Source of the DNA: an uncultured bacterium
Lineage (GTDB): Bacteria > Verrucomicrobiota > Verrucomicrobiia > Verrucomicrobiales > DEV007
Direction of reading: 5' to 3'
Assembly (NCBI GenBank): GCA_963977015.1
Contig: CAXBMO010000001.1
Coordinates: 64,001 to 128,000, forward strand
Length of the DNA: 64,000 nt
A model generated the notes under the pieces. That model was not told the DNA's origin. It worked only from the letters and a program-made list of their open reading frames with translations, and did no database searches. The translations under genes were made by a program, and so were the position numbers. Of this stretch, positions 10,379 through 51,167 are shown one piece after another (position 1 is the first letter of the stretch; each line of letters begins with the position of its first letter).

Positions 10379-10450
<72 letters not shown>

Positions 10451-30085: not shown

Positions 30086-30106
30086 TTCAAGGCCGAAAAC
30101 TATCTT

Positions 30107-31216
30107 ATGAGCCCCGAAACATTTTGCCGGTGGGGCATTCTCAGCACTGCTGGAATTGCCCGCAAAAATTGGCAGGCAATCCATAATTCTGGAAATGGTC
30201 AAATTGTTGCAGTTGCGAGCCGCGATGCTGGAAAAGCTGCGCAATTTATTACGGAATGCCAAGCCGAGGCACCATTTTCGCCTCCACCAGAGGCCGTTGC
30301 TGGTTACGAGGGCCTGCTTGCTCGCAATGACATTGACGCGGTCTACATTCCACTTCCGACCGGGCTCCGCAAAGAATGGGTAATCAAGGCAGCCCAGGCC
30401 GGGAAACATGTTCTGTGTGAGAAGCCCTGCGCAATCAACGCCGCGGATCTTCGCGAAATGGTCGAAGCCTGCAGGGCCAACAACGTGCAATTCATGGACG
30501 GCATCATGTACATGCACAGCAAGCGGATGGATGCCTTGCGCGAGGTGATTGACGATGGGCAGAGCATCGGTGAAATCCGCCGAATCACGACCCAGTTCAG
30601 CTTCTGTGCGCCTCAGGATTTCCTGGCGGAAAATATTCGGTTAAACAGTTCCCTGGAGCCTGCCGGTTGCCTGGGGGACTTGGGATGGTACACCATCCGG
30701 TTCATCCTTTGGACTTTGAACTACGAGATGCCAAACAGCGTATCGGCACGCCTCATCTCAGGCGCCGGTCGGAGCGACAGCCCCGACAAAGTTCCAACGC
30801 AATTCAGCGCGGAACTGTTCTTTGGTAACGATGTAACCGCCAGTTTCTTTAATTCGTTTCGAACCGAGCATCAGCAATGGGCCAACGTCAGTGGCTCAAA
30901 GGGGCATCTAACGGTGAATGACTTTGTCTTGCCGTATTGCGGCAATGAACTGGATTTCACGGTCTCCAATGCCCATTTCGATGTCCGAAACACCCAGTTT
31001 GTGATGGAGCGCCATGACCGCAGGATTGCGGTTTCAGAGTATTCGAACAATCACCCGACCGCTCAAGAGACGAACCTCTTTCGCCGATTTGGCGAACTGG
31101 TGATTGGTGGTCAACCCGATGAACACTGGGCGGAAATTGCCCTCAAGACGCAACGGGTGCTCGACATCTGCCTTGAATCCGCACGAGCCAGCGGTGAGGA
31201 GCTTCCTTTAGATTGA
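30107..31216 (+). CDS. Gfo/Idh/MocA family oxidoreductase
   Basis: WGILSTAGIA, GKHVLCEKP, GCLGDLGWY. Confidence 0.9.
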   Translation: MSPETFCRWGILSTAGIARKNWQAIHNSGNGQIVAVASRDAGKAAQFITECQAEAPFSPPPEAVAGYEGLLARNDIDAVYIPLPTGLRKEWVIKAAQAGKHVLCEKPCAINAADLREMVEACRANNVQFMDGIMYMHSKRMDALREVIDDGQSIGEIRRITTQFSFCAPQDFLAENIRLNSSLEPAGCLGDLGWYTIRFILWTLNYEMPNSVSARLISGAGRSDSPDKVPTQFSAELFFGNDVTASFFNSFRTEHQQWANVSGSKGHLTVNDFVLPYCGNELDFTVSNAHFDVRNTQFVMERHDRRIAVSEYSNNHPTAQETNLFRRFGELVIGGQPDEHWAEIALKTQRVLDICLESARASGEELPLD

Positions 31217-31367
31217 TTCAATGGGCTGACCTTCGCCCCGGATTGGGCGCACCGAAGGAGAAGTCCATCTCAAATTGGCGAGTGGAAGCTTGATCTGCAA
31301 TCAAGTCACTGGCGCCCTCATTTGGCTACCAAATTGCGGGGTCTTGTTCTCCTGATCGTTTCCCTGA

Positions 31368-31395
31368 AGCAGGGACGAACAGCAGGGACGAACAG
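31368..31395. repeat. Tandem duplication AGCAGGGACGAAC x2
   Basis: Exact 13-nt direct repeat plus AG; first copy can pair with upstream CTGATCGTTTCCCTG. Confidence 0.85.
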
Positions 31396-31444
31396 AAAAG
31401 TGGGTTGGCTCAATCTCGCCATCGCTCGAGCGCCCCTCGCGGAG

Positions 31445-31487
31445 AAAAGAAAAACGGGGTGACAGATCAAAGATCCATCACCCCGTT
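31445..31487 (-). terminator. Rho-independent terminator of the porin gene
   Basis: AACGGGGTGA/TCACCCCGTT stem followed on the minus strand by a T-rich tail. Confidence 0.8.
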
Positions 31488-31521
31488 GGAAAAGAATTAA
31501 ATCTTTAGAATCAGCAGTGTC

Positions 31522-32247
31522 TTAGAAAGAAACCGTGACGCTTGCACCACCGTGCACGTCGTCATCTTCACCTGCGTCAGACAAGTCCTCGAGAGGGAAG
31601 TTGCCACCGACGTAGATGTCGAACGTTGCTGCTTCCGTCATGGACCAGCTAAGGCCAGCGGTAGCGAATGCGTGGTTGAAGCTGCTAACACCGTAGTAGT
31701 CATCGCCGTAGCCAATGCCTGCTCCGAGTCCAAGCTCAAGACAATCGGTAAGAGGAATGCCTTTGCTTGCGCTCAGCTCGTAATACCAGCCAGCGGTGGT
31801 TTCGTCATAGACGACCAATGCGCCCAAGTCGAAGATGTCACCAACGGAGTAACCGAGGCTAAGAGCACCTTCCAGTGCTTCAGTATCAGCTTCTGCGAAG
31901 TAGAACCAAGTAGCACCAATGCCTGCGTCGAAAATCCACAATGGGAAGTTCAAGAATGCATAGACGTCCAACTCATCAAAGTTAGCTGGATCTTGAGTTG
32001 GGTTGATGTACCAAGTTCCGAAGTTCAAGCTCAGCGTGTCGCTGAAGTCGTAGTTCAGATCTACTCCGGTCCAAGGTGCGTCGCTTCCGAAATCGGTACC
32101 ACGGAACAGGTAAGTGGTTTCGTAACCTGCAGAAACAGAACCGTAGAATGGAACTGCGCATACGGGATCTTCAATAACTGGCATTTCACCACCGACCAGG
32201 ATTGCTGGAGCAGCTAGTGTCGCCAAGAGGACAGTTAGTTTTTTCAT
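31522..32247 (-). CDS. Putative outer-membrane beta-barrel porin (TorF/Gcw_chp-like)
   Basis: Signal peptide MKKLTVLLA, TYLFRG motif, alternating beta-strands, C-terminal Phe. Confidence 0.75.
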   Translation of the reverse strand: MKKLTVLLATLAAPAILVGGEMPVIEDPVCAVPFYGSVSAGYETTYLFRGTDFGSDAPWTGVDLNYDFSDTLSLNFGTWYINPTQDPANFDELDVYAFLNFPLWIFDAGIGATWFYFAEADTEALEGALSLGYSVGDIFDLGALVVYDETTAGWYYELSASKGIPLTDCLELGLGAGIGYGDDYYGVSSFNHAFATAGLSWSMTEAATFDIYVGGNFPLEDLSDAGEDDDVHGGASVTVSF

Positions 32248-32302
32248 ATTAAGGTGTGTTGACTTGTGTTGGTTGTTTACTCGAAACGTGAGTTGAATAC
32301 AG

Positions 32303-32319
32303 AGCAGAAAGGATGCCAA
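32303..32319 (-). promoter_or_regulatory. Sigma-54 promoter (porin)
   Basis: Minus strand TTGGCATCCTTTCTGCT (GG-N10-GC), ~55 nt before ATG. Confidence 0.7.
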
Positions 32320-32392
32320 GTTAGGATAAATCGTTCCCCGGCGCTTTAAATCAGTATTCGTGCGGGACTCTAACAGTAAGCTTTGAAATAAT

Positions 32393-34180
32393 TCAACCAT
32401 TTCTGACGAAATTTCGCCAGTTTTTCACCTCCGTGATTCGTTTTGCCCGTTGGAGGATGAAATTTTCGCAGAGAAAGCCGGGAATTACCTCCCCAGAAGC
32501 CATTCTAATCTTCCCAATTCCAAGAGGCTCGGGAATTTGAGTGACAAATTCGCCAAACTCTCGAAGGGGCAGGGCCCAAACCTCGACTTCGATCGATTTC
32601 CCGGCGTCTTCATTTCTGACAAGGCCGGGGCGTGGCGGCAAATTGTCCATTTCCGGAAGCGCGTAGAGGTCGTAGCAGGGCGCTGTCTCAGCCGTGCCGA
32701 GAAATCGCCCTTGTCGCTCCGTGAGTTGATGATTGAGCGGTAATCCACGCATGTGAGCGCCACAGACGACCAGAGGGCTCCATCCTTCGGGGACACTGGT
32801 GCCGGTTTCCGTCCCTGAGAGGGAGGGAGGAGTCGCTGAATCGAATCGATCAGCAAGTTCGAGCAGCTTGCGGTCGTGGAACGCTGGTGCGAAAAAAGTA
32901 ACACCGAAGGGAAGGCCGGAATCCAGTTTCCCGGCGGGAAACGCGGTCGCGCTGTAATCCAGCAGGTTCATGAAATTGGTGTAGTAACCCAAATTGGAGT
33001 TGAGCTGAATTGGCTCGGCTTCGACTTCAGCGGCTTTGTAGATCGTGCCAGCGGTTGGAGTCAGAATCACATCGACCAACTTCCAGGCTTCGTCGGCCCG
33101 GCGTTTCAAAGCGCGAAGTCGATATTCTGCGTTGAAGGCATCGACAGCCAGCGGTTTGGCGCCTCCTTCTACGATCGTTCGAGTTACCGGGTGAAGAATC
33201 TCCGGCCGGGTCTTGAACACCTCTTCCATTGCGGCGTAGCGCTCAGCAACCCAGGGGCCTTCGTAAAGCAGACGCGCCGCCTCCAGAAATGGGGAAAAGT
33301 CGATCGATACCAATTCTCCGCCAGCCTCTTGCAGCTGCTTGATCTTCTCGGCGAAAAGGGCGCGAGCCGAATCATTGCCGAAAAATTCCAATTGGTCCGC
33401 GTTTGGGACTCCAAAGCGAAAATGCTGCCCCAGTGGAGCGGCTTCCGGAGATGTCGGATCTTCTCGAGCATAGGCGTCCGAGGGATCGAACACCGCTGCC
33501 ACGTCGAGGATGGCTTCTGCATCTCCTGAGTTGTTGGCGAAAATGGAGACGCAATCCAAAGTCTTGCAGGCGGGAAAGACGCCCGAGCAGCTGAGAAGGC
33601 CGCGGCTTGGCTTGTGACCCACCAATTCGTTGAAGGCTGCGGGGATTCGGCCCGATCCTGCGGTGTCGGTGCCGAGAGAGAAGCTGGCAAATTCTTGTGC
33701 CACGGCTATGGCCGATCCCGAGCTTGATCCGCCGGGGATGTATTCCGGATCAAAGGCGTTCTCCGGAAACCCATACGGGGATCGAACTCCGACCAATCCG
33801 GTCGCAAACTGGTCGAGATTCGTTTTTCCGATCGGAATCGCCCCTGCGTCGATCAGTGTTTGCACGACAAACGCCGATCGCTCGGGGTCGTAGGCAAATT
33901 CGGGACAGGCAGCAGTGGTTGGCGCGCCTTTCAGATCAATATTGTCTTTGATGGCGAAGGGAACTCCGAAAAGCGGCAATGACGCGGGATCGAGGGACTC
34001 GATTTGCTTCGCGTATTCCAACAACTCGTCGAGCGAGAGCCGGTGGATCCAAATCCTTGTGGGCTCGGCCTTGGTGATCGCCTCATCCAGGGCTTGAACG
34101 AGTTTTGTGGGAGTCCAATCGCCGCCAGCATACGCTTCGCGAAGGGATTTGAGGTCCAAATTGGGTAGCTTGGTGCTCAT
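32393..34180 (-). CDS. atzF: Allophanate hydrolase
   Basis: Amidase signature FAIKDNID, GGSSSGSA, GTDTAGSGR; C-terminal VVCGAHMRGLPLN domain. Confidence 0.95.
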   Translation of the reverse strand: MSTKLPNLDLKSLREAYAGGDWTPTKLVQALDEAITKAEPTRIWIHRLSLDELLEYAKQIESLDPASLPLFGVPFAIKDNIDLKGAPTTAACPEFAYDPERSAFVVQTLIDAGAIPIGKTNLDQFATGLVGVRSPYGFPENAFDPEYIPGGSSSGSAIAVAQEFASFSLGTDTAGSGRIPAAFNELVGHKPSRGLLSCSGVFPACKTLDCVSIFANNSGDAEAILDVAAVFDPSDAYAREDPTSPEAAPLGQHFRFGVPNADQLEFFGNDSARALFAEKIKQLQEAGGELVSIDFSPFLEAARLLYEGPWVAERYAAMEEVFKTRPEILHPVTRTIVEGGAKPLAVDAFNAEYRLRALKRRADEAWKLVDVILTPTAGTIYKAAEVEAEPIQLNSNLGYYTNFMNLLDYSATAFPAGKLDSGLPFGVTFFAPAFHDRKLLELADRFDSATPPSLSGTETGTSVPEGWSPLVVCGAHMRGLPLNHQLTERQGRFLGTAETAPCYDLYALPEMDNLPPRPGLVRNEDAGKSIEVEVWALPLREFGEFVTQIPEPLGIGKIRMASGEVIPGFLCENFILQRAKRITEVKNWRNFVRNG

Positions 34181-34182
34181 AA

Positions 34183-37100
34183 TTATTTTTCCAGCTCAAG
34201 AATCGCCAAAATCTGGCCGGCGCTGACGCTGGCTCCTTCTTCCACCAGAATCTCGCGAAGCTTACCGGTCTCTGGCGCTCCGACCGAAATTTCCATTTTC
34301 ATGCTTTCCACGATGAGAAGAGTTTGATCTTCGGTGACCGAGTCGCCGGGCTTTGCCTCAATCTTCCAAAGGCTTCCCGCAACCGGCGAAGTTACCGCTT
34401 CGCAGCCGTCGGGAATCTCGATAGCATCCTGTTGAGTCGGCAATTCGGTTTCTTCCGCCTCGAAACTCATCGCGCCGCTCGCTTCCCAGCGTTCGCGTTC
34501 TTCCGCAAATGCTTGGCGCTGAGTCTCTCGAAACGATGCGATGCTGGTGTCGTTCTCCTTCAGAAACGCGTGGTAATCTTTCGGGCGAAATGTGGTTTCT
34601 TCGATTTTGATCTCATATTGGCCGGTCAAAAACTGGCGGCGCATTTCAAGAAGTTGATCTGCCTCGACCGGAAACCACCGAATTTGGTCAAAAAAGCGCA
34701 GCAGCCACGGCTTTCCTGCCTCAAAATGCTCAGTAGTGTTAAATCTATTCCAGACTGGAAGCGTGCGTCCCACAAACTGATAGCCGCCGGGACCTTCCAT
34801 CCCATAAATGCAGAGGTAGGCTCCACCAATTCCAACGGCATTTTCCGGAGTCCAGGTTCGCGCCGGATTATATTTCGTCGTGACGAGGCGATGTCTCGGG
34901 TCGAGTGGGGTGGCGACTGGAGCACCCAGGTAAACATCGCCAAGGCCCATCACGAAATAGCTCGCGTCATAAACGATTCGGCGAACCTCATCGACTGATT
35001 CGAGCCCGTTAATTCGGCGAATGAACTCAATATTGCTCGGGCACCACGGGGCGTCAGCCCGAACGATCTGCATGTATTTGTCGATCGCTTCCTGAGTCGC
35101 GGGATCATCCCAACTCAGCGGCAGATGGACGATTCGGCTCGGAAACTCCATTTCGTCCGGCGAAGGCAGGCTGCTTTCCGCGCTTTCGATCAGCTTGAGC
35201 ACGTCTTTTCCCTGAATTTGAGTCGGATCGAATTGCACCTGCAGCGAACGAATCCCGGGCACGAGTTCGAGCAGTCCGTTGAACGGAGCCGCCTGAATTG
35301 CGTCATGAAGCGCTTGAACTCGGAATCGTAAATCGAGATCGAGCACCAAATCGCCAAACTCGACCAGAATGACGCCGTCTCCGCTTTGGCGAAAAATCAC
35401 CCCACGCTCATCAATGGCGTCAAGAATGGGCGGCGTTCGACGGGAGGAGACGCTGGCGTCGCGAACTGTCGTCTCGCGAATTCCTTCTTCCTGAGACAAG
35501 AGAATACTCTCCGCGTCTTCATTGGAGACGGAAACAAAGCGGATGGAGTCACCCGGCTTCATTTGGCCCATTTTCCAGAGATCGGCACGAATGATCACCG
35601 CCGGACAGACGAATCCACCCAGACTGGGGCCGTCCGGTCCAAGGAGAATTGGCATGTCCCCCGTGAAGTCGATCGAGCCGACGCAATAGGCGTTGTCGTG
35701 AATGTTGGAGGGGTGAAGACCGGCTTCTCCCCCATCTCGGCGTGCCCATTTGGGTTTTGGACCGATCAATCGAATTCCAGTTCGGTCCGAATTGTAGTGA
35801 ACCTCCCAACTTGTCGAGAAAAAGGTTTCGATGTCGGAATCCGTAAAAAACTCGGGGGCTCCGTGTGGCCCGTAAACAACGCGGACTTCCCACTGGTTTG
35901 TCAGATCCGGGCGATTGACGTCTGACGGGGAGGGGAGGGCTTCAACGGATCCTGCCAAGTGCAGAACGTCGCCGGTTTTGAGTGCTCTGCCGCCGTGGCC
36001 ACCGAATTTTCCCAATCGAAAGGTGGCGCGACTTCCCAGGTATTCCGGAACATCCACTCCTCCCTGAATCAGGAGATATGCGCGTTGGCCCGGGCCGGAA
36101 ACGTCCTTGAGTTTTAAAACCTGACCCGCATTCACGGACACGGGAGCGAATCGCTCGATCGGCTCTCCATCGAGCATGGCGTTCATATCAGCGCCGGTCA
36201 GGCAAATGACCGTGCTCGAGTTGAATTTCAGTTTCGGTCCTCGGACTGCCATCTCCAATCCGGCCGCTGCTTCGTCATTACCGAGAATCTGGTTTCCCAA
36301 CCGGAAGCTCAACGGATCAAAAGGTCCTGATGGAGGAACGCCGACATCCCACATCCCGATTCGTCCCGGATAATCCTGGATGGTCGTCTCCAGGCCCGGA
36401 TCCAGCACATCGATCGTCGTCGGTGCATAGGCGAAGTCGTTCAAGAAGCGGGTGGTAATCGTGCCCTCGACAAAGGCTTCAGATTCCAGAATGCTCGAAA
36501 CGTAAGCTTGGTTCGTTTCAATTCCGTGGCAGCCCAAGGTCGACAGCGCTTTTTTCAGGCCCTCGGTCGCTTTGGTGCGGTCGGACTCATGGACGATGAC
36601 CTTCGCGACCATGGGGTCGTAAAAACTGGGGACCTCGGTTCCAGACTTGATCCAGGTGTCGCAACGGGCGTTCTCCGGGGCGGTGAACTCGGTGACCAAA
36701 CCGCTGCTGGGTTGGAAATTCTTGTTCGGGTCTTCCGCATAAATCCGGGTCTGAATCGCGTGCCCCTTCGGGCTTGCCGAAGCCGCCAGCTCATCGATGG
36801 AAGGCAAGTCGCCGGCTGCCAGACGAATCATCCATTCGACCAGGTCAATTCCCCAGACTTCCTCGGTCACCCCGTGCTCGACTTGTAGGCGAGCGTTCAC
36901 CTCCAGGAAGTAAAAACGGCGGTCAATGTCGTCCCAAAGAAACTCGACGGTGCCCGCTGAGCGATAGTTGACGGACTTGGCAATCCGAATCGCAGCATCG
37001 GCGATTGCCTGGCGTTCTTCATCGCTCAACCCGGGAGCGGGCGTCTCCTCGATGACCTTCTGATTGCGGCGTTGCGCAGAGCAATCGCGTTCGCCAAGCG

Positions 37101-37764
37101 CAATCACGTTGCCTTTTCCATCTCCGAAAACCTGGACTTCAATGTGACGTGCGCGCTCGATGTATTTTTCGAGAAACAGGCTGGGGTCGCCAAAGTTGGA
37201 TTGGGAGAGGCGCCGGACCTGATCGAACAGGGTTGGAACTTCCTCGGCAGAATACGCGATTTGCATCCCAATTCCTCCACCTCCGGCGGAAGATTTCAGA
37301 ATCACCGGAAACCCGACTTTGATTGCCGTTTCCAGGGCTTCTTCCGCAGTTTTCAAGAGGTCGCTGCCTTCCAGCAGTGGAACCTGGGCATCGCGCGCGA
37401 TATCGCGACACACATGTTTGAGGCCACAGGTCTCGAGCTGCTTGGGAGTTGGGCCGATGAACGCAATTCCGGCCTCTTCGCAGGCATTCGCGAATCCCGC
37501 GTTTTCGCTCAAAAAACCGTAGCCGGGGTGGATGGCTTCCGCACCGGTTTCCCTGGCGGCTTCAATGATTTTCTGAACATCAAGATAGGTTTCGGAGGCT
37601 AGGTTTCCCGGCAAAAGAACCCCTTCGTCCGCATCCAGTGCGTGGAGGGATTCACGATCCGGATTCGAAAAGACGGCAACTGACCCAATGTTCAGTTTGC
37701 GAAGCGTGCGTTGAATCCGGCAAGAGATGGCGCCACGGTTGGCGATAAGGACTTTCTTAAACAT
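34183..37764 (-). CDS. uca: Urea/guanidine carboxylase
   Basis: Biotin carboxylase domain (LIANRG, RDCSAQRRNQK), carboxyltransferase domain (GLHPSNIHD, TTKYNPARTWT), biotinyl ESMKME. Confidence 0.95.
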   Translation of the reverse strand: MFKKVLIANRGAISCRIQRTLRKLNIGSVAVFSNPDRESLHALDADEGVLLPGNLASETYLDVQKIIEAARETGAEAIHPGYGFLSENAGFANACEEAGIAFIGPTPKQLETCGLKHVCRDIARDAQVPLLEGSDLLKTAEEALETAIKVGFPVILKSSAGGGGIGMQIAYSAEEVPTLFDQVRRLSQSNFGDPSLFLEKYIERARHIEVQVFGDGKGNVIALGERDCSAQRRNQKVIEETPAPGLSDEERQAIADAAIRIAKSVNYRSAGTVEFLWDDIDRRFYFLEVNARLQVEHGVTEEVWGIDLVEWMIRLAAGDLPSIDELAASASPKGHAIQTRIYAEDPNKNFQPSSGLVTEFTAPENARCDTWIKSGTEVPSFYDPMVAKVIVHESDRTKATEGLKKALSTLGCHGIETNQAYVSSILESEAFVEGTITTRFLNDFAYAPTTIDVLDPGLETTIQDYPGRIGMWDVGVPPSGPFDPLSFRLGNQILGNDEAAAGLEMAVRGPKLKFNSSTVICLTGADMNAMLDGEPIERFAPVSVNAGQVLKLKDVSGPGQRAYLLIQGGVDVPEYLGSRATFRLGKFGGHGGRALKTGDVLHLAGSVEALPSPSDVNRPDLTNQWEVRVVYGPHGAPEFFTDSDIETFFSTSWEVHYNSDRTGIRLIGPKPKWARRDGGEAGLHPSNIHDNAYCVGSIDFTGDMPILLGPDGPSLGGFVCPAVIIRADLWKMGQMKPGDSIRFVSVSNEDAESILLSQEEGIRETTVRDASVSSRRTPPILDAIDERGVIFRQSGDGVILVEFGDLVLDLDLRFRVQALHDAIQAAPFNGLLELVPGIRSLQVQFDPTQIQGKDVLKLIESAESSLPSPDEMEFPSRIVHLPLSWDDPATQEAIDKYMQIVRADAPWCPSNIEFIRRINGLESVDEVRRIVYDASYFVMGLGDVYLGAPVATPLDPRHRLVTTKYNPARTWTPENAVGIGGAYLCIYGMEGPGGYQFVGRTLPVWNRFNTTEHFEAGKPWLLRFFDQIRWFPVEADQLLEMRRQFLTGQYEIKIEETTFRPKDYHAFLKENDTSIASFRETQRQAFAEERERWEASGAMSFEAEETELPTQQDAIEIPDGCEAVTSPVAGSLWKIEAKPGDSVTEDQTLLIVESMKMEISVGAPETGKLREILVEEGASVSAGQILAILELEK

Positions 37765-37768
37765 GATG

Positions 37769-38401
37769 TTAGTCCCAGATTAAAACGCGCACAGGTGTCG
37801 GGTTATACGCATTGCAGGGATTGTTGAGTTGAGGACAGTTCGAGATGAGCGCGATCACGTCCATTTCGGCTCGCATTTCCACATATCTTCCCGGTGCCGA
37901 GATTCCATCGGCAAACGTTAGTTTCCCTTCAGGAGTAACCGGTACATTCATGAAGAAATTGATATTGCAGGTGATGTCTCGTTTTCCCATGTCGTGGCCC
38001 CACTCGGTAACGCCACATAGGAAGCTATCGCGACACGCGTGCATGTATTCCTTGTCCAAGGCATAGCGCATGGTGTTGCTTTCGCGGGAGCAGGCGCCGC
38101 CGACAGTGTCATGACGGCCGCAGGTGTCCGCTACGATGGTGAGGAGAACATTTCCCTCGGTGGAGATAAGTTCGGTTCCCGTCGTGAGATAAAGGTTTGC
38201 CTGACGTTGGATCGTGTCGCTGGCGCTATACCGATCACTGACATCATGGGCGTTGTAGAAGAGCGTGTCAGCCGCTTGGTTTCCTTCCAGATCGAGGATG
38301 CGAAAGGTTTGGCCCTTCTTGATTTCACGCATCCAATGATCACCGGCAAGAACCGTGTAATCATAGGATGCGTCTTCTGGGACTAGTGAGGATTCGGTCA
38401 T
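37769..38401 (-). CDS. cgdB: Carboxyguanidine deiminase subunit B (DUF1989)
   Basis: [39 protein letters not shown]. Confidence 0.88.
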
Positions 38402-39126
38402 GAGCGCAGCGCGTGATAGTTTGTGGTATTCAGATAAGCTCGTTCGTTCTCCGGGCAGGAAGCTCGGTATTGGCCGTCATTCTCCGATTCAAAAACACTC
38501 AAAAGTAGAGGCTTGGGAGAGTAATCGGGATTGGGATCGAGCGGATGCTGGCAGGTATTCAGAATCACCAGCGTGTCCATTTCAAAACTCAGATCAACGA
38601 CGGACCCGGGAGGAGATGCGCCTTCTGCGTAAGTGAGATTTCCGTCTTCATCAGAAACCACTTTGCTAAACCAATTCACATTGGGAACCAGATCCCGTTT
38701 GCCAAGACCCCATTTTGCCATCTCAATCAAAAAATCGTCTTTTGCGTTTCGGTGGAAGTCATTGCGCGCGGTTTGATAGTTGTTCTCCCCATACTTTTTG
38801 AGCACCAACCCGGCATTCGAACATCCGCAGACGGTGTCGTGCCATCCCATGGTATCTTCCGAGATGCCGGCAAAGATTCTGCCCATGTCAGAATGCAGGC
38901 AGTAAGGTTTTGTCAGGAAAAAGATCTGCTGCCCCTTCAGGGTGTCCGGCATGTTATAACGCTCCAATGGTTGGTCCGCATTAAAGAGCAACATTCCGAC
39001 ATTCACTCCTCCTTCGAGGTCCGTCATTCGCAAGGTTTTTCCCTTCCCAATGACCTGGGACCACATTCCGCCGCCGCGAATGGTTGTTTCAAAGCGAAGC
39101 TTGTCTTGAGGTATGGTCGTGCTCAT
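38398..39126 (-). CDS. cgdA: Carboxyguanidine deiminase subunit A (DUF1989)
   Basis: [39 protein letters not shown] overlap with cgdB. Confidence 0.88.
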
Positions 39127-39593
39127 GATTCGTCAGGAAGAGGGTGGATCGGTGGTAGTATCATTGAGAAAATGGTCAGGCGTCCGGATTTCACCCCTTT
39201 GGCGGTGATCAGCTCATCTGAAATCGCTTTGAGCCGTTTTGCGGGGCCCTGAACGAGCAGCACTTCCATGGTGTGTTCGTTTTCGAGCAATATATGTTGG
39301 GAACTGATCACTTCGTTAATGTGTTTGCGCTCAATGTCAGAAAGTGTCTGAAGCAGGCCGGGGCGCGACGCATCATAGAAAAGCGTGATGGTGCCTGCCA
39401 TGACCTCCTCACCAAGTTCACTGCGATGCTCCAGCGCACTTTGCTGAATCATCTCGGCTACGGCCTGAGAACGGCTTTGAAAGCCCCGTTGCTCGATCAG
39501 GCGATCAAGCGCGTCGTAGACTTCGGGCAAAAGTGAAACGGTGATGCGTTTCACCCCGTCGACATGGTTCAAACTGGGAGGTGCTTCATTCAT
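39123..39593 (-). CDS. NikR-family (RHH + ACT-like) transcriptional regulator lacking most Ni ligands
   Basis: RITVSL..E.YDALD.L...RGF.SRSQA RHH domain; GTITLFYD...SSQH..L...HTMEV C-domain. Confidence 0.85.
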
Positions 39594-39616
39594 ACTTATG
39601 TTTTCGAAAGTATTAC
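39589..39616. promoter_or_regulatory. Candidate operator of the NikR-like regulator (overlaps its ATG)
   Basis: Imperfect inverted repeat TCATACTT-N10-AAGTATTA; minus strand reads GTAATAC-N14-GTATGA. Confidence 0.5.
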
Positions 39617-39626
39617 CAATGTTTGG

Positions 39627-39643
39627 AGCATTTATTGTGCCAA
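39627..39643 (-). promoter_or_regulatory. Sigma-54 promoter (regulator-cgdAB-uca-atzF operon)
   Basis: Minus strand TTGGCACAATAAATGCT (GG-N10-GC). Confidence 0.8.
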
Positions 39644-39663
39644 TACAAGGCCTTTGAGGGGAT

Positions 39664-39680
39664 TTGGCGCGGAACCTGCT
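39664..39680 (+). promoter_or_regulatory. Sigma-54 promoter (ABC ATPase)
   Basis: TTGGCGCGGAACCTGCT (GG-N10-GC), 36 nt before ATG. Confidence 0.7.
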
Positions 39681-39716
39681 TTTACGGTTTCTGTTCAACT
39701 TTTAACCAGCTTTCCC

Positions 39717-40625
39717 ATGGTCCAATCGCTTCAATTGCCCAGTTACCTCGAACAAGATCCAAAAGTTGCGTCTCGCTTTGAGAGGCTCAAACAACGTGAC
39801 ATCGAGCTCGATGTGCGAAATTTGGGAAAGATCTTCAACGGCTCGGGAGGCGAAGTGGAAGCCCTGCATGACGTGAGTTTCAGTGTCTATCGGCGGGAGT
39901 TCATGTGCGTGCTTGGTGCCTCGGGATGCGGAAAATCAACCCTGATCAGGATTTTGGCCGGACTTGAAAGCCCAACCTCAGGAGAGGTTATTCTCGATGG
40001 GAAGCCTGTCTCCGGGCCGGGGCCTGATCGCGGAATGGTGTTTCAGAGTTACACGCTCTTCCCGTGGTTGACGGTGAAAGACAACGTGATGTTTGGGTTG
40101 GAAATGACGGGCAGGGGTGGCTCTGCGGCGGAAAGCGAGGCCCGCCAATGGATTGACCTGGTTGGACTTTCCAAGTTCGAGGATACCTACCCTCATCAAT
40201 TGTCAGGTGGAATGAAGCAGCGGGTCGCCATCGCGCGAGCACTCGCCAATCAACCCCGGATCCTGCTGATGGATGAGCCGTTTGGTGCCCTGGATGCTCA
40301 GACAAGGGCCCACATGCAGGCCTACCTGCTCCAAATCTGGAAGAATGTGGACATTACCATTTTGTTCATCACGCATGATCTTGATGAGGCAGTTTACCTG
40401 TCTGACCGAATCCTGGTTCTTAGTCCCAACCCGGGCGAAGTCGCCGAGATGATCGAGGTTCCCGTGCCTCGGCCGCGCTCGCCCGATCAGTCAATTATGC
40501 CTGAGTTTCTGGCCACCAAGAAGCGGCTTGAAGAACTGATTCACCCGAAGCACAGCAGCTCATCGGATGACGATGAGTCGATCCCCATTCTCAGGATGAC
40601 GGCGCTGGATGATGATGTGGAGTGA
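39717..40625 (+). CDS. NitT/TauT-type ABC transporter ATP-binding protein
   Basis: Walker [33 protein letters not shown]. Confidence 0.95.
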
Positions 40626-41469
40626 AGTCAGCCTGCCAGGCTGAGAACGCCTTGCGCAGCTCGATTCCCATCCACTGATTGATCTCCCACAGGTCCGCCA
40701 CAGGTTTCTTGGAATAGGGCTCCAGGTGAAGGTAACCGTCCGTGCCGAACTCTGGAGTCATCGTGAAGGTTTCGAAACCGCGAAGAGCCTGACACTCCCA
40801 CATGGTTTCCCACCAGGTCAGGTGCGCTGCAACGGCCTCGGCATATTCGGGGGCGCGCGGGTCTGGAACCTGCGGACCCTGGTCGTAGCCAACCCGGGCG
40901 TGGAGATGCCAACAATTTTTTCCGAGAGCGGCTAACAAGTCAGCATTGTCATTCATCACGAGACGTTCCGCGACGCAGCACCAATGGCTGAAATCCAGAT
41001 TCAGCTTGAGATCCGGCAACTCGTGAATCAACTCAGCGGTGACCCACGGGGTGAAGGTTGAGCGGCTCCGGTGAGTTTCGATCGTGATGGTTGTGTTGAA
41101 CTCGCTTTCCAGTTCGAGCAATTGGCCAAAGTAGTCGATCTGCGTTCTGAGGGGCCAGGCGTCCAAACCCGTTTGCGTGTTCACGAAGGTTGGCTCCAAC
41201 GGAAGGCTTCGCTCCAGCCCGCGGCGCAAATCATCAAGGTGGTTGGACGGTGTGGCGCACGGATCAGGGACATACCAACCACCTGTGAAAATCTCGGCGA
41301 TCATTTCGAGGTCGGCCGCCTCAAGTTGCTCTTTGAGCAAGGATCGTTCGTCGTCTTGAGCTGGGACCGGTCCCTCGATCCCGTCAAACTCTGCGCTGAC
41401 GGCTTGTTCGATCGCTTCGGTCAGCGTTCCTTCATGACCCCAGAGCGGTTTGTAAATCTTTAACTTCAT
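40591..41469 (-). CDS. Sugar-phosphate isomerase/epimerase-like TIM-barrel protein of unknown function
   Basis: FDGIE, ETHR, DFSHW, HARVG and TPEFG motifs; TAATG coupling to upstream gene. Confidence 0.75.
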
Positions 41470-42328
41470 TATTGCTTTTCGAAGTCGATTTCGCGGCGGG
41501 CGGTGGGATTCTCGAGCACATAACGGGCGAGTTCCGATCCGGTCGTGATCCAGGTGTCACCGCTTTCCAGCAGGCCGCGAATGATGCGCTCCAGAAGTTG
41601 CACCCGGGAAGGGCGACCGCTGAGCCAGGGGTGAAGTGTCAGGACAAAGCAGCAGCCGTAATCGCGCATTGCCTCGAATTCGCGCCACCAGAGTTGGAAG
41701 ACCTTTTCGCAATCCTCGGGAATGACTCCCCAGGCTGGATCGGCGTTGAAGGCGAATTGTTCCCAGTCTTCCAGCAGCCATTGGCCGGGAATCTCGACCA
41801 AACCGTTTTGATGAATGAACGGGACATCATCGCTCATCATGCTGGCGTCATAGAGAAACCCGTGGGATTTGAGCAAATCGGGTGTTCCGGGATTGAGCTC
41901 AAACCATGGCGCGCGAAATCCGATTGGCCGGCTGCCGACGATCCGTTCCAGAATGGCGGTGGATTTTTCCAGAATCGCCTCTTCTTCGGGTGGTGCGAGC
42001 GTCGGCAACTTTTCGTGAAGATGACCATGGGCGCCAATCTCGTGACCCTGGTTCGCGATTGCTTCGGTCATTTTGGGATACTGCTCCGCAACCCAGGAAG
42101 GAATGAAAAACGTGCCGGGAACGTTGTAGTGTTTCAGGAGTCCGAGGATCCGCGGCACGCCAATTGAAGGGCCGTAGCTGCACTGCGACATCGTGGTGAT
42201 GCGGCTTACGAGGTTGGGATCTTCAGAAAGCGCGGTGGTCTCGCCATCGACGTCAAAGCAAAGCATGGCGGCGGCTTTGCAACCATTGGGCCAGGAGAAG
42301 CGGGGCTCCGGTTGATATTTGGGAAGGT

Positions 42329-42332
<4 letters not shown>
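41469..42332 (-). CDS. CE4/polysaccharide deacetylase family amidohydrolase (PuuE/HpPgdA-like)
   Basis: CFDVD, HEIGAHGHLH, GFRAPWF, LTLHPW; no signal peptide. Confidence 0.85.
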
Positions 42333-43005
<673 letters not shown>

Positions 43006-43006
<1 letters not shown>

Positions 43007-43794
43007 CAGGCGTCGGCTCCTTTCCAGGCTCCATCGATCCATTCGAGCGGAGGAGTCAAGTCATAGTGGTTCCACCCTGCGCTCACGCCGCCATCCACAG
43101 GAATGATCGCTCCGGAAATGAATCGAGCATCGTCCGATGCGAGGAATTCGTAAACGGGAGCAATTTCCTCCGGAGTTGCGGCTCGTCCCAATGGCGTTCG
43201 GTCGGTCATGAATGCAGGTTCCGGATTGTCCGGAATCTGGGTGACTGCAGGTGTTAGGATGAGACCCGGGGCAACGGCGTTGACTCGGATTTGCCGTTTG
43301 CCCAATTCGATCGCTCCGATTCGGGTCAGGTGATCGACAGAGGCTTTTGAGGCGGCATAACTTGGGCAGTTGGGAACGCCGGTCGAGCCGACGAACGAAC
43401 TGGAGTTGATGACCGAACCGCCTGATTCGAGGAATCGCGCGGCGATCTGAATGCCAAAAAAAACGGCATGCGAATTCACCTGGAAAACCAGATCCAGCAG
43501 TTCGGGTGTCGTATCAGCCAGCGAGATTCCGTGCGGTTGAATCGCTGCGTTGCTGATCAGGCAATCAATGTGGCCAGCCCAATCCTGAACTGCCTCAAAG
43601 GCTTGCTCCAGTTCCGCTTTCTTGCTGACGTCCCCCTTGATCGTGAAGAACGCTTCCGTGTCGGGATCAGGAAACTTTTGGTCGAAAATGGCGACCCTGG
43701 CTCCGGCTGCGGAGAACCGTCTCGCGATTTCCAGTCCCAACCCTGAGGCTCCTCCAGTGATCAGAGCGACCTTGTTCTCAAGTCTCCCGCTCAT
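43006..43794 (-). CDS. Short-chain dehydrogenase/reductase
   Basis: TGGASGLG, NAA, YAASK, VNAVAPG, VDGG. Confidence 0.93.
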
Positions 43795-45146
43795 CGCTGG
43801 CTTGGTGCTGCGGGGCGGTCAAGTGTTGGATACGTTCCACGTGCGCGTGCTGCCAGGTAGCGTTGAATCAACCAGACCGACATTTCCAAATGACTAAGCC
43901 GGCCACGCTGGAATCCGTCGGAATGGAGGCTGCGTTGAACGGCGGAGAGAACCTCCATATCCTCCAAATGAAATCCGATGGCGTCTTGGGTGGCGCGCTG
44001 ATGCATCTTCTCATAGTCGGGATGCTCAACGGTGGATTTTGGAACCAACACGGTCGTCATCAGTCTGACCAAATTGGGTGAGACAGGTTCGATGCGGTAC
44101 CAGACGGCCTGGTCGGGAGTGACCAAAAATGTAAAAAGTGGGAAGCCGAGGTAGAGTCCCCATTCGTGGCGCTTTTCATCGTTCAAACCGGCGATGGGCG
44201 GAAATGCATCCCAAGTCTCACCTTTGGATTCCGCTTCGACGATCGCGTTGCGACTCTTCTCACCGTAGGGGAGGTGACAGCGGATGAAGTGGGCTTCCTC
44301 GCCCTCGTTCCACGTGCCCTTTGCCGGCATGATGGTCTGCAGGGTTTTCACATGGGTTCCCGCATGATGATAGGACTCCATGAAGTTTTCGGTCAGGACT
44401 TTCCAATTGCAGGGAACCTCCCAATGAGCTTCGAAGATCAGTTCCATTTCTCCAAGATTCCACGGTTGAATTTCGGCGTCGATCTTGGCGTATTGCTCTG
44501 CGACCGTGGTTTTGGAGTCGCCATCCAGATTGACGAAAACGAAGCCGTTCCAGACTTCGGCCCGGAATTCCTTCAACCCCCATTCGCAGCGTTGGAAGCC
44601 CTTGGCGTTTTGCATCTCGGGGCAGGCTTTGAGCTGGCCGTCCAGCTCGAACGTCCAAGAATGGTAGGGACAAAGAAACAGTCTGGTGTGGCCACGGTTT
44701 TCGCCACCCTGACGGAACTCCGCGGGTCCATGTCCGTCGTGACCGAATCCGGGAGGCATGATGTCCATTCCCCGATGAGGGCAAACCCGCGATAGCACGT
44801 GGATGTCATCGGACTTGTCCCGCACCACGAGCAACGGTTCGCCGAAGAGTTCCACGTTGATGAAGTCTCCCGCCTTGGGGATCTGTGAAACATGTGCCAG
44901 GCACATCCAGTCGGGACGGAAAAGGTTTTCAATCTCCCAACCGAAAAATTCTTCGCTCGTGAAAGCTTCCTTGGGCAACGTGGTTGCCTCTTCAAGCGGT
45001 AGGTCGGCAATGCGCTGAATTTCGGCGAGAATCTCGTCCAGAGTGAGATCTTTCGATCCGTATGGCCAGGAAGGGCTCTGCAGATCGTTGAGTTTGGCGT
45101 TAAAAGAGGATGCTTTGCGCACCTGTTGTTCATCGATAATTGGCAT
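43791..45146 (-). CDS. Rieske non-heme iron oxygenase alpha subunit (choline monooxygenase/CntA-like)
   Basis: CPH...CPYH Rieske ligands; NWK..TENFMESYHH...H and C-terminal ED iron site. Confidence 0.9.
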   Translation of the reverse strand: MPIIDEQQVRKASSFNAKLNDLQSPSWPYGSKDLTLDEILAEIQRIADLPLEEATTLPKEAFTSEEFFGWEIENLFRPDWMCLAHVSQIPKAGDFINVELFGEPLLVVRDKSDDIHVLSRVCPHRGMDIMPPGFGHDGHGPAEFRQGGENRGHTRLFLCPYHSWTFELDGQLKACPEMQNAKGFQRCEWGLKEFRAEVWNGFVFVNLDGDSKTTVAEQYAKIDAEIQPWNLGEMELIFEAHWEVPCNWKVLTENFMESYHHAGTHVKTLQTIMPAKGTWNEGEEAHFIRCHLPYGEKSRNAIVEAESKGETWDAFPPIAGLNDEKRHEWGLYLGFPLFTFLVTPDQAVWYRIEPVSPNLVRLMTTVLVPKSTVEHPDYEKMHQRATQDAIGFHLEDMEVLSAVQRSLHSDGFQRGRLSHLEMSVWLIQRYLAARARGTYPTLDRPAAPSQR

Positions 45147-45178
45147 AGCGAAGATAGGATTACGTCAGAACATAGAGT

Positions 45179-45195
45179 AGCAATATATGTACCAA
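45179..45195 (-). promoter_or_regulatory. Sigma-54 promoter (Rieske operon)
   Basis: Minus strand TTGGTACATATATTGCT (GG-N10-GC). Confidence 0.75.
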
Positions 45196-45206
45196 TTGCA
45201 GTGGTA

Positions 45207-45223
45207 TTGGCACGCTGCCTGCT
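45207..45223 (+). promoter_or_regulatory. Sigma-54 promoter (aldehyde reductase)
   Basis: TTGGCACGCTGCCTGCT (GG-N10-GC). Confidence 0.75.
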
Positions 45224-45236
45224 TCATACTGGCACG

Positions 45237-46253
45237 GTGATCATTCCAGCTTTCTCGACTTCCGCGCCGAACCTTCCTTTCGCCCTAACCGAAATTGAAC
45301 TGCCGGACGCTTTGGGGCCCGATCAGGTTGAAATCGCGGTCGAAAGTTGTGGGCTTTGCCACAGCGATCTCAGCATGAAGAATAACGACTGGGGCCTCAC
45401 CAGTTACCCTTTTGTTGGGGGACATGAAGTGGTGGGCCGGGTTGCGAAGAAAGGGGAGTTTGTCACCCATTTGGAGGTCGGGCAGCGTGTTGGTTTGGGG
45501 TGGTATTCCGGAGCCTGTTTAACGTGTCCAACCTGCATGGGTGGGGATCACAATCTCTGTCCGCAAGCGGAAGGGACGATCGTGGGACGACATGGTGGAT
45601 TTGCGAGTCGGGTTCGTGCCCAGGCGATCTGGTGCGCTCCGATCCCCGAGAAGCTGAACCCGAACGTTGTCGGCCCGCTCTTCTGCGGTGGAATCACGGT
45701 GTTTAATCCGATTGTTCAGAATCGAATCGTCGCTTCGGATCACGTCGGAGTCATCGGCATTGGAGGGTTGGGGCACCTGGCGCTCCAGTTTCTTTCTGCG
45801 TGGGGATGTGAAGTCACGGCTTTTTCCACGAACCCTTCCAAAGAGGAAGAAGCGCGAAGTATGGGGGCCGATCATTTCGTGAATTCGCGGGATTCAGCTT
45901 CGTTTAAGGCTCTGGAAGGCACCTTTGATATGATTCTGGTCACCGTGAATGTCGCGCTGGATTGGCCCGCCTACATGACGATGTTGAAGCGTAAGGGGAC
46001 ACTTCATGTCGTCGGCGCCGTTCCTCCGATCGAAACCTCGTCGGAGCCTCTCATCGAACACCAGAAATCTCTGACCGGCAGTCCGTTGGGAAGTCCGGCC
46101 CTCGTGCAGACCATGTTGAACTTCTGTGCCCGAAAAGAGATTGCTCCCATCACTCAGTCATTTCCATTGAGCGAGATCAATGCGGCATTCGCTGAGTTGG
46201 AGGCTGGAAATGCTCGCTATCGAATCGTCTTGGAAAACGATCTTCAGGATTGA
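45237..46253 (+). CDS. Zn-dependent NAD(P)H aldehyde reductase (CAD/Ahr-like)
   Basis: CHSD, GHE, CxxCxxCx7C structural Zn site, PLFCGGIT, GIGGLG; probable GTG start at 45237. Confidence 0.9.
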   Translation: MIIPAFSTSAPNLPFALTEIELPDALGPDQVEIAVESCGLCHSDLSMKNNDWGLTSYPFVGGHEVVGRVAKKGEFVTHLEVGQRVGLGWYSGACLTCPTCMGGDHNLCPQAEGTIVGRHGGFASRVRAQAIWCAPIPEKLNPNVVGPLFCGGITVFNPIVQNRIVASDHVGVIGIGGLGHLALQFLSAWGCEVTAFSTNPSKEEEARSMGADHFVNSRDSASFKALEGTFDMILVTVNVALDWPAYMTMLKRKGTLHVVGAVPPIETSSEPLIEHQKSLTGSPLGSPALVQTMLNFCARKEIAPITQSFPLSEINAAFAELEAGNARYRIVLENDLQD

Positions 46254-46885
46254 ACGTTGTCCCAGACTGATCCCGCCCGAGGAGTGTCGATGCGATAGTC
46301 CGTGTAGAAACGTTCAAACATCGTCGCCCCCAACGTTCGAGCCTCCTCAATGGCGCCCGAAGGATCAGCGTCGACATCTCCGCGCTTGTTTCCGATTCCC
46401 TGAACGACCCCGACAAACTCCGAGTACGTGTAGCGGGAGAACTCTTGAATCGAGTGAACGATCCCCATCGTGGCGGCGGGGTAGGATTCTTCCGAGCTGA
46501 TCACCAATCCCAGCTTCTTTCCGCACATCGCCTTCGCGTATTCATCGCTCTTGGGGTGTGATGCTGCATAGTAGCAGAATGAGCGATCGAAAAACGTCTT
46601 CAATTGGCCGCTCATGCCATACCAATAAAGCGGAGTGGCAAAGATAATACCGTCAGCCGGAAGATACTTGGTCAGGAACAGTTCGCGGTAATCGTCATCG
46701 ATTGAGCATTCGCCGTTCTCATTTCGGCACTGACGGCAATCCTTTAGAAAATGGCGAAGATAGTCGTCAATGTAGATTAATTCGGCATCGTGGCCCGAAG
46801 ATTGGGCACCTTCCAGTGCGGCATGGGCAAGGCGAAAGGAATTTCCGTCTCGTCTTGGACTTGAACTCAGGATCAAAACCTTCAT
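46244..46885 (-). CDS. Flavodoxin-fold NAD(P)H:FMN reductase / iron-sulfur flavoprotein-like protein
   Basis: SSPRRDGNS, CRQC-x6-C, ATPLYWY, LKTFFDR; ATGA overlap with upstream gene. Confidence 0.85.
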   Translation of the reverse strand: MKVLILSSSPRRDGNSFRLAHAALEGAQSSGHDAELIYIDDYLRHFLKDCRQCRNENGECSIDDDYRELFLTKYLPADGIIFATPLYWYGMSGQLKTFFDRSFCYYAASHPKSDEYAKAMCGKKLGLVISSEESYPAATMGIVHSIQEFSRYTYSEFVGVVQGIGNKRGDVDADPSGAIEEARTLGATMFERFYTDYRIDTPRAGSVWDNVQS

Positions 46886-47436
46886 GGGCGACTCCATGCC
46901 AGATTTTGGACTTGAGGATCGAGAGGTGTCTCCGCAATCCCGTTGGTATAGTTGCTGATCAGTTTCACGGCCAGACCGAGAATGACTTCCATCGCCTGGG
47001 TGTCGCTGTATCCCGCTTCCCAGAAGGCGTCTCGTTCCTCCATCGGAGGGTGGCCGCGATGTTCAATGAGCGAAGCGGTGAAACGCCGGAGCGCTTCCAG
47101 TTTGGGATCGGACAGTGGTGTTCCCTGCCGCAACGCTTCGACGTCCTCCGGTTTCATACCCGCGTTCTTGCTGAGCAAGGTATGCCAGGGGACGCAATAC
47201 GTACAGTTGTTCAGGAAATTCGCGGTTTGATAGACGACTTGTTGCTCGATCGGTGTGAGCGTTGTTTTCGCAAACAAATCCCAAAGTTGGACGTAGCCTT
47301 CCAAGGCTGGTGGAGCAGAGGCAAGCGTCCTTTCCAGGTTCGGAATCATCCCGAAGTCGCCTTGGACCTGGTTTAACAGATCCCGGGACGCTTCCGGAGC
47401 CGTCTCGAACTGGTGCTGAGGGAATTTGTCAGTCAT
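46882..47436 (-). CDS. AhpD/carboxymuconolactone decarboxylase family protein
   Basis: GMIPNL, NNCTYCVPWH, SNYTN motifs. Confidence 0.88.
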   Translation of the reverse strand: MTDKFPQHQFETAPEASRDLLNQVQGDFGMIPNLERTLASAPPALEGYVQLWDLFAKTTLTPIEQQVVYQTANFLNNCTYCVPWHTLLSKNAGMKPEDVEALRQGTPLSDPKLEALRRFTASLIEHRGHPPMEERDAFWEAGYSDTQAMEVILGLAVKLISNYTNGIAETPLDPQVQNLAWSRP

Positions 47437-48883: not shown

Positions 48884-49666
48884 TTAAATATTGATCGGAG
48901 AAAGGTTGTTCCAGAATTTGGAATCCAGGGGCGGCGTTTCGGTTTTGGCTTGGGTCACCAATTCAGCAAGTCGGTCTCCCATTTTTCGGAAAAGTCGTTC
49001 ACCGTCTTCGGCGTTGCCTTCACTCGGTTTCCCGGTGATTCCGTTCTTGCTGGTTTGGGCAACCGGATAGCTGAAAATGGTGTCCGTCGTCCGGTCGGGA
49101 TCATCTTCCACCATGTCCATCCTGACCGTTTCTGGCGCGAGATGGAGCATCAAATCGGTTTCAGACTTATTGGCATGCAAGTCTTCAGCATCCTTTGTAA
49201 ATTCGTCCCAGATTTCCGGTGACAGGGTAAACGTGTTCAACCCCGCGATTTGCAGTTTCCCCAGATGGCGCAAACGAAGCTTGTCGACCGCAACCCGCAG
49301 GGACGCGTCGTTCCCGAAATGGGAATTGACGATGAGCAGGCGATTCCAACCTGTTGCGACCGTCCAATCGACGATGTCGCCCAGCACCTGGATGAGCGTC
49401 TCGTGCCGAAGGGAAAACGTTCCCGGCCACTTGGTGGTATGACCGGTGGAGACGGTGAAGGAGATGGGAGGTAGGACCGGAATCTGGGTCGCCGCTGAAG
49501 CATAGGCGCAGATTCGAGAGGCAATGACCGTATCGGTATTGATTGGAAGATGGGGGCCATGCTGCTCGGTCGCGCCCAAGGGCAGGATGAGCATCGATAC
49601 ACCACTCGACTGAAGTTCCTCGATCGCTTTCCAAGAAAGCGACTCTAAATGAACGGTATCACCCAT
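48884..49666 (-). CDS. Creatininase-family amidohydrolase
   Basis: PLGATEQHGPHLP..TD, VNSHFGN, HA...ET metal-ligand motifs. Confidence 0.9.
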   Translation of the reverse strand: MGDTVHLESLSWKAIEELQSSGVSMLILPLGATEQHGPHLPINTDTVIASRICAYASAATQIPVLPPISFTVSTGHTTKWPGTFSLRHETLIQVLGDIVDWTVATGWNRLLIVNSHFGNDASLRVAVDKLRLRHLGKLQIAGLNTFTLSPEIWDEFTKDAEDLHANKSETDLMLHLAPETVRMDMVEDDPDRTTDTIFSYPVAQTSKNGITGKPSEGNAEDGERLFRKMGDRLAELVTQAKTETPPLDSKFWNNLSPINI

Positions 49667-51099: not shown

Positions 51100-51125
51100 G
51101 GCGAGGAGGGGGTGGTTGTTGTGAA

Positions 51126-51167
51126 TTGGGACGCAACGCTGAACGTGTCGGACAGCGTTGCGCCCAA
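51126..51167. other. Intercistronic hairpin between binding-protein and permease genes
   Basis: TTGGG-A-CGCAACGCTG/CAGCGTTGCG-CCCAA stem; no long U tail on the coding strand. Confidence 0.65.

Follow-up and report, generated by a model that had tools for sequence, protein, structure and literature searches.

NikR binds nickel in a high-affinity square-planar site to which one chain contributes His87, His89 and Cys95 and the neighbouring chain His76 (E. coli numbering), and the operator of the Escherichia coli protein is GTATGA-N16-TCATAC (PMC7055735). A 2026 preprint infers the NikR family to be nickel-responsive and treats it as a specialised nickel sensor. The degradation of guanidine is subject to a different kind of control: the guanidine-I riboswitch opens transcription when guanidine is present (PMC11410670). 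A 2025 minireview names riboswitches as the sole known guanidine receptors besides transporters and enzymes, and states that guanidine-binding regulatory proteins may still be discovered (PMC12186494). Here, we analyse a NikR-family gene in a stretch of 64,000 nucleotides from an uncultured member of the Verrucomicrobiota (contig CAXBMO010000001.1); this entire 64-kb stretch is called the window. With somewhat more belief than doubt, we propose that the encoded protein is a transcription factor that no longer senses nickel and that serves as a local regulator dedicated to the uptake of guanidine and to its degradation via the guanidine carboxylase pathway.

The regulator is encoded at the following position:

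39123-39593, minus strand: NikR-family regulator with a ribbon-helix-helix (RHH) and a NikR_C domain, 156 aa, R89/H100/L102/T108 at the four nickel ligand positions

Both domains are recognised by Pfam (RHH_1 with 28.7 bits at residues 16-51, NikR_C with 77.9 bits at residues 66-141), and the best solved relative is the NikR protein of P. horikoshii (2bj1, E 1.1e-26), followed by those of H. pylori and E. coli. The AlphaFold model, calculated with 31 homologues, has a mean pLDDT (predicted local distance difference test) of 83.1. When this model was used for a Foldseek search of the PDB, the top matches were exclusively NikR structures, with a root-mean-square deviation of about 0.9-1.2 Å for the C-domain. 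Thus, the assignment of an RHH plus NikR C-domain protein in the first-pass annotation, which had been made from the letters of the DNA, stands. The same annotation had read H76R, H89L and C95T with H87 kept from an alignment by eye, and the HMMER alignment to 2bj1, in which the ligand spacing H-x10-H-x-H-x5-C falls on R89, H100, L102 and T108, matches this reading exactly. In 16 canonical NikR proteins of the same phylum, these alignment columns hold H, H, H and C. Three of the four ligands that define the square-planar site of NikR are thus replaced in the regulator (by R, L and T), and the alignment and structure prediction that had been proposed as a check agree that the NikR fold is kept while the nickel ligands are exchanged. 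This confirms that the window protein is a NikR-family protein without the canonical nickel site. With the NCBIfam equivalog model NF003381, the regulator scores 106.3 bits at a cut-off of 105, and this closeness to the threshold results in automatic pipelines labelling some members of the group as NikR and others as CopG family.

The loss of the nickel site, which had first been noted for this single protein, extends to the whole clade. We compared the query and the best 120 clusters from 1675 protein matches (52-92% identical, mostly from Verrucomicrobiota): R89 is present in 116, H100 in 118 and L102 in 103 of these 121 sequences, and position 108 is occupied by T, V, I, R, K or A, but by Cys in none of the 121. 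Similarly, no Cys is found at the fourth ligand position in any of 80 genome loci, five of them gammaproteobacterial, in which the ligand strings are RHLV (45), RHLT (18), RHLI (5), RNLT (3), HHHT (3) and six singletons. Moreover, R16 and S20 are invariant across the clade. The replacement residues are themselves conserved, which speaks in favour of selection for a new constraint rather than of decay.

The stop codon of the regulator gene overlaps the start of the next gene (the open reading frames end at 39123 and 39126), and the operon that follows consists of these genes:

38398-39126, minus strand: DUF1989 protein, TIGR03425 (UAAP1, 304.7 bits, over the cut-off), member of a cgdA/cgdB-like pair, carboxyguanidine deiminase subunit
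37769-38401, minus strand: DUF1989 protein, TIGR03424 (UAAP2, 340.4 bits, over the cut-off), second carboxyguanidine deiminase subunit
34183-37764, minus strand: biotin-dependent carboxylase, 1193 aa, TIGR02712 (1806 bits), Asp at the positions of K. lactis 1330 and 1584
32393-34180, minus strand: allophanate hydrolase (Amidase plus AH_C), TIGR02713 (745.7 bits, over the cut-off)
31522-32400, minus strand: last open reading frame of the operon, without a family match, true start probably near 32247

Guanidine carboxylases are distinguished from urea carboxylases by Asp residues at the positions corresponding to 1330 and 1584 of the K. lactis enzyme (Palatinszky et al., PMC11410670). The window carboxylase was aligned to chain 5i8i, the full-length K. 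lactis enzyme; it has Asp opposite the yeast Asn 1330 as well as Asp at 1584 and therefore bears the signature of a guanidine carboxylase and not that of a urea carboxylase. The strict motif was readable in 28 of 109 related loci, and all 28 have Asp. The TIGR03425/TIGR03424 pair of DUF1989 proteins is now called carboxyguanidine deiminase in the pathway naming of PMC11410670. With the signature residues at both positions, the cgdAB-like pair and the allophanate hydrolase all in place, the guanidine carboxylase pathway named in the first-pass annotation is borne out.

The association between regulator and pathway is not a peculiarity of the window. In 68 of the 80 regulator loci, the next gene downstream in the same orientation is cgdA-like; of the remaining 12, eight show the Opitutales/Puniceicoccaceae arrangement, in which the regulator gene and the importer operon diverge, and the other four are one importer cassette (L144) and three short contigs. 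Of 301 sampled Verrucomicrobiota genomes, 94 have a NikR_C match and 29 have cgdB, and all but one of the 40 loci taken gave a usable match. Here, 21 of 23 non-HHHC proteins are encoded within 10 kb of cgdAB and the carboxylase gene, as compared to none of the 16 HHHC NikR proteins. One of the two exceptions is due to a split assembly with the cluster on another contig (L078), the other one is a 111-aa HHHY-type NikR fragment in a genome that lacks cgdB (L058, G171:C18), which may be what remained when the cluster was lost. Counted from the side of the pathway, the regulator is present in 23 of the 29 cgdB-bearing genomes.

The first-pass annotation had found no guanidine riboswitch in the short leaders and had suggested that the protein takes the place of such riboswitches, with mutual exclusion of the two across loci as a check. 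Both points are supported. With Rfam at the gathering score, the window yielded two tRNAs only and no guanidine riboswitch, and none appeared at E<=10 in the region 30000-47000 either. There was also no riboswitch in 14 related loci; in seven regulator-linked loci, guanidine riboswitches of every Rfam class were absent. The guanidine-I model RF00442 had no match in any of the 29 cgdB-bearing Verrucomicrobiota, with B. subtilis positive as the control. Among 301 genomes of the class of one gammaproteobacterial member, 23 carry cgdB, and 22 of these remain after leaving out the centre genome. A guanidine-I riboswitch is present in 14, a NikR-like gene in 6, neither in 2 and both in none. In 13 of its carriers, the riboswitch is found 0.9-6 kb upstream of cgdB, on the same strand of the same contig, and in one carrier it is on another contig; the NikR-like gene is adjacent to cgdB in five genomes and on another contig in the sixth. 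The chance of zero overlap is about 4e-4 if the 22 genomes were independent, and they are related. The idea that the regulator stands in for the guanidine riboswitch is thus supported.

If the protein controls these genes, it should have binding sites in front of them. We searched for palindromic dyads in 78 upstream regions of related loci, with shuffled regions as the control. Perfect dyads of the types GTATGA-N16-TCATAC, GTAATA-N16-TATTAC and GTATTA-N16-TAATAC are present in 23, 9 and 4 regions, respectively, as compared to at most 2 among the shuffled regions; taken together, 36 of the 78 regions have a perfect dyad of one of the three types. At the level of the clade, the dyads at the heads of the operons can be summarised as GTAWKA-N16-TMWTAC. 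They are located just ahead of the start codon of the regulator gene, in several loci only 4-6 nt before it, and gammaproteobacterial operons are headed by such boxes, too. A second box precedes the importer operon in five loci (L097, L104, L111, L117, L139), and in L142 a second box is found 183 nt upstream of the regulator gene. The half-sites vary with the DNA-reading beta-strand of the protein: with T at position 18 (RxTVSM), 29 of 30 scored loci have TGA half-sites, and with S at that position (RISxSL), the half-sites are symmetric (ATA or TTA) in 16 of the 25 scored loci, mixed in 7 and of another kind in 2. As the two types correspond to two clades, this covariation supports direct reading of the DNA by the regulator but is no proof of it. 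Near the genes of HHHC and HHHY proteins, no GTA...N16...TAC dyads were detected at a score of at least 11; therefore, the box cannot be called ancestral within the phylum.

In the window, the predicted targets besides the operon of the regulator are the importer genes, which form one divergent gene and a second operon. These genes and the two candidate boxes are:

39589-39616, Box 1: imperfect dyad, minus strand GTAATA-N16-TATGAA, two mismatches from GTAATA-N16-TATTAC
39717-40625, plus strand: ATP-binding protein of an ATP-binding cassette (ABC) transporter, NitT/TauT-like, divergent from the regulator
52251-52278, Box 2: minus strand GTATCC-N16-TCATAC, two mismatches from GTATGA-N16-TCATAC
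51196-52197, minus strand: substrate-binding protein of the ABC importer, best family TIGR03427 (155.7 bits, below the cut-off)
49672-51099, minus strand: ABC permease, TauC/SaoP-like
48884-49666, minus strand: creatininase-family amidohydrolase, partner gene kept in related clusters (L034, L144)
47443-48864, minus strand: glutamine-synthetase-type-III-like ligase (433.7 bits, below the TIGR03105 cut-off), likewise a partner gene kept in related clusters (L034, L144)

Box 1 overlaps the start codon of the regulator gene and lies within the 123-bp gap to the divergent ATPase gene. Box 2 is the sole site in the window with up to two mismatches to GTATGA-N16-TCATAC, and it is situated 54 nt upstream of the binding-protein gene, which had been detected independently of the box with TIGR03427. 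For the degenerate pattern, eight sites with up to two mismatches are present in the window vs. 5.6 expected; two of the eight fall into the two promoter gaps that were predicted from the gene context (316 bp; about 0.03 by chance). An alternative palindrome at 39592-39613 (ATACTT-N10-AAGTAT) is not conserved in related loci, and the N16 dyad was preferred. A sigma-70 scan of 39400-39900 revealed no promoter. In a search of the window's own genome with one mismatch, the degenerate box had 34 sites vs. 55 for a control pattern, and therefore no wider regulon can be claimed.

The genes for the ATPase, the permease and the binding protein are located together with the partner genes in one operon in related loci. 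The creatininase-family hydrolase and the type-III-like ligase accompany the guanidine importer in Verrucomicrobiota as well as in Gammaproteobacteria (L034, 13739-15978; L144, 3783-5955), and this pair may hint at a guanidino compound, substituted or cyclic, as the substrate. This brings up the question of whether the regulator responds to a small molecule other than guanidine, such as urea, carboxyguanidine, allophanate, a metabolite that reports the nitrogen status, or a cyclic amide or substituted guanidine on which the creatininase-like and glutamine-synthetase-like enzymes would act. The regular presence of the two genes in the clusters is in good agreement with such a ligand, as is the genome G304, in which the regulator is part of this cassette without the carboxylase and riboswitches control other importers. 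Arg89 would, moreover, be suited to an anionic ligand. However, the carboxylase bears the guanidine signature, and in other bacteria the heads of orthologous cgdB operons are occupied by guanidine-I riboswitches, which are switched on by guanidine (PMC11410670). We therefore regard a ligand of this kind as unlikely.

Taking gene context, operators and phylogenetic distribution together, we conclude that the protein is probably a nickel-independent, guanidine-responsive local repressor that replaces the riboswitch. The tetramer would bind the N16 dyads as NikR does, and the spacing of the dyad would fit such a tetramer. Repression of its own operon, of the divergent ATPase gene and of the binding-protein/permease operon is inferred from the boxes, which abut or overlap start codons. 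An effector bound in a remodelled pocket of the C-domain might then release the protein from the DNA. This effector would most likely be guanidine, because the regulator holds the place of a riboswitch that is turned on by guanidine in other bacteria; guanidine sensing by the C-domain is thus suggested by the gene context and by the replacement of the riboswitch. The ligand is the weak link of the model, and the effector could also be an intermediate of the pathway, a guanidine derivative handled by the two extra enzymes, a signal of the nitrogen status or a metal.

One may also ask whether the protein responds to any ligand. The remodelled site could lock the DNA-binding state, e. g. by a salt bridge of Arg89, and the protein would then do no more than dampen its own expression, or a partner protein would control it. 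The autoregulatory layout with a box ahead of the regulator's own gene agrees with this possibility, the conserved replacement residues are also compatible with a structural role, and the fold matches the deposited apo structures of NikR (2bj3, 1q5v), from which it follows that nickel is not required for the NikR fold. Apo-NikR is a tetramer. Yet, induction by the substrate is the rule for catabolic operons that have an importer of their own, and a blind repressor is not what one would expect to replace a ligand-sensing riboswitch. A ligand-independent regulator is thus very improbable in our view.

It is attractive to take the idea of a guanidine-responsive repressor further, even though we doubt this extension slightly more than we trust it: the clade would provide the first transcriptional regulator that is a protein receptor for free guanidine, with the metal site at the tetramer interface having been lost stepwise (HHHC to HHHY/HHHT to RHLT) and turned into a guanidinium pocket. 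In the boldest form of this idea, the guanidinium group of the Arg89 side chain might fill the former position of the nickel ion and hold the DNA-binding state, and free guanidinium might compete with Arg89 and so release the repressor.

Several observations weigh against the loss of metal sensing and the replacement of the riboswitch as outlined here. First, the boxes of the window itself are degenerate, with two mismatches each, and the nearest relative (L079) has no good dyad. Second, 6 of the 29 cgdB loci of Verrucomicrobiota have neither the regulator nor a riboswitch, and the pathway can therefore be controlled in other ways. Third, the relatedness of the genomes makes the exclusivity count look more significant than it is, and no more than 91-95 candidates per genome were scored in the RF00442 scans. 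Fourth, the genome G304 has the regulator at the end of the importer/creatininase/glutamine-synthetase-like cassette and three guanidine-I riboswitches at other importer loci; hence, both systems can coexist in one genome at different loci. Finally, some carboxylase-linked members have kept much of the metal site. Three of the four ligands are retained in six Verrucomicrobiota (L045-L050), which have the string HHHY, and in three Gammaproteobacteria (L103, L112, L134) with HHHT; in all nine, the regulator gene lies next to guanidine carboxylase genes. Metal binding may still occur in these two subgroups. Moreover, the clade shows conservation of several His residues (H56, H91, H100, H107).

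As to the six loci without regulator and riboswitch (L072-L077, from G002, G010, G013, G136, G175 and G220), they have three DUF1989 genes instead of two. A scan of these six loci revealed no riboswitch and no recognisable regulator; in L073, a 154-aa open reading frame without a family match precedes the binding-protein gene.

The partially retained ligands raise the possibility of a metal-sparing switch: nickel or another metal would be sensed via the remodelled site, and the protein would repress the nickel-independent, ATP-costly carboxylase route whenever the metal suffices for urease and guanidinase. Two guanidine routes, one nickel-dependent and one not, have been described (PMC11410670). 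The three His residues retained in the HHHY and HHHT subgroups and the conservation of H91, H100 and H107 would suit such a switch. Moreover, urease is encoded in 13 of the 29 cgdB genomes including all six HHHY genomes, none of which has a second NikR match, and in G252 the regulator gene lies about 3 kb from ureC. In the quick tree (SH-aLRT, i. e. Shimodaira-Hasegawa-like approximate likelihood ratio test, support and midpoint root), the HHHY group is the sister of the canonical HHHC clade, which is bounded by a branch with 99% SH-aLRT support; the 85 Arg-type rows lie across the midpoint root. The tree and the intermediate forms fit a stepwise loss from a nickel sensor, and a residual metal response is possible in the intermediates. 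For the protein studied here, however, the evidence points in the other direction. With Arg, Leu and Thr in place of three of its ligands, the square-planar site as described in PMC7055735 cannot be formed, and the Cys is missing in every carboxylase-linked member examined. The regulator is encoded by the single NikR_C gene of its genome (95% complete), in which no match to urease alpha, [NiFe] hydrogenase, NiCoT or CbiM was found, and its neighbours are guanidine genes rather than genes for the nickel uptake systems or nickel enzymes that NikR controls. Similarly, 16 of the 29 cgdB genomes have no urease. The mutual exclusion with the guanidine riboswitch suggests a guanidine-type signal rather than a metal. 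Thus, we consider a metal-sparing switch to be quite unlikely.

Several other features of these loci deserve mention. In the window, the ATPase gene (39717-40625, plus strand) is inverted and separated from the permease and binding-protein genes (49672-52197, minus strand) by about 9 kb of unrelated genes for a flavodoxin-like protein, an alcohol dehydrogenase, a Rieske oxygenase, a short-chain dehydrogenase/reductase, a formylglycine-generating enzyme/sulfatase-type protein, a deacetylase and a TIM-barrel protein. The last open reading frame of the carboxylase operon has an internal Met with a signal-peptide-like stretch behind it, and with its C-terminal Phe, the product resembles an outer-membrane beta-barrel as judged by eye, possibly a substrate channel; a weak homologue is encoded within the L032 cluster. 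The urease cluster of G252 contains an Rfam match to 5_ureB_sRNA (L040, 4855-5153, minus strand, 55.2 bits), probably the usual match to the ureB coding sequence. The tRNA genes of the window are located at 10379-10450 and 11932-12004, and size and order alone suggest EF-Tu and rpoB/rpoC for the long open reading frames at 10573-11757 and 15739-23779.

In the literature covered by our search, which did not extend to supplements, we came across neither a paper connecting a NikR homologue with genes for guanidine or urea carboxylases nor a protein that senses guanidine. The widespread guanidine-linked clade that lacks the nickel site adds a new functional variant to the NikR family, and its recognition corrects automatic names such as "nickel-responsive regulator". 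Since cultured hosts are available (Haloferula and Luteolibacter strains), the question of a protein receptor for guanidine becomes directly testable. If our proposal is true, a metal sensor has been turned to another signal with its operator kept, an RNA has been replaced by a protein at one regulatory position, and a protein part for guanidine biosensors may become available.

The regulator can be compared to three groups of known systems. With small-molecule-responsive RHH regulators such as MetJ, which uses S-adenosylmethionine as its cofactor, and CdbA, which reportedly responds to cyclic di-GMP, it shares the RHH domain as the DNA-reading head, and ligand-dependent DNA binding would be a common property as well. 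Those proteins have other effector domains, however, with neither the NikR_C tetramerisation domain nor a tie to guanidine. The operons under the control of the guanidine-I riboswitch (ykkC, RF00442) are similar in gene content, as they encode an ABC importer, CgdAB, guanidine carboxylase and allophanate hydrolase with the regulatory element at the operon head; here, a DNA-binding protein and its putative operator take over the task of the leader RNA. Finally, the regulator has the RHH plus NikR_C architecture and the fold of the canonical NikR proteins of E. coli (1q5v/2hzv), H. pylori (2ca9/6mrj) and P. horikoshii (2bj1). The dyads of its clade have the same N16 spacing, many of them being identical to the E. 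coli operator, and in both cases the regulator gene adjoins the target operon. In contrast to canonical NikR, three nickel ligands have been replaced and the Cys is absent throughout the clade, the predicted targets serve the uptake and catabolism of guanidine instead of nickel transport or nickel enzymes, and rather than being recruited to the DNA by a metal co-repressor, the protein would be expected to leave it upon binding of its effector.

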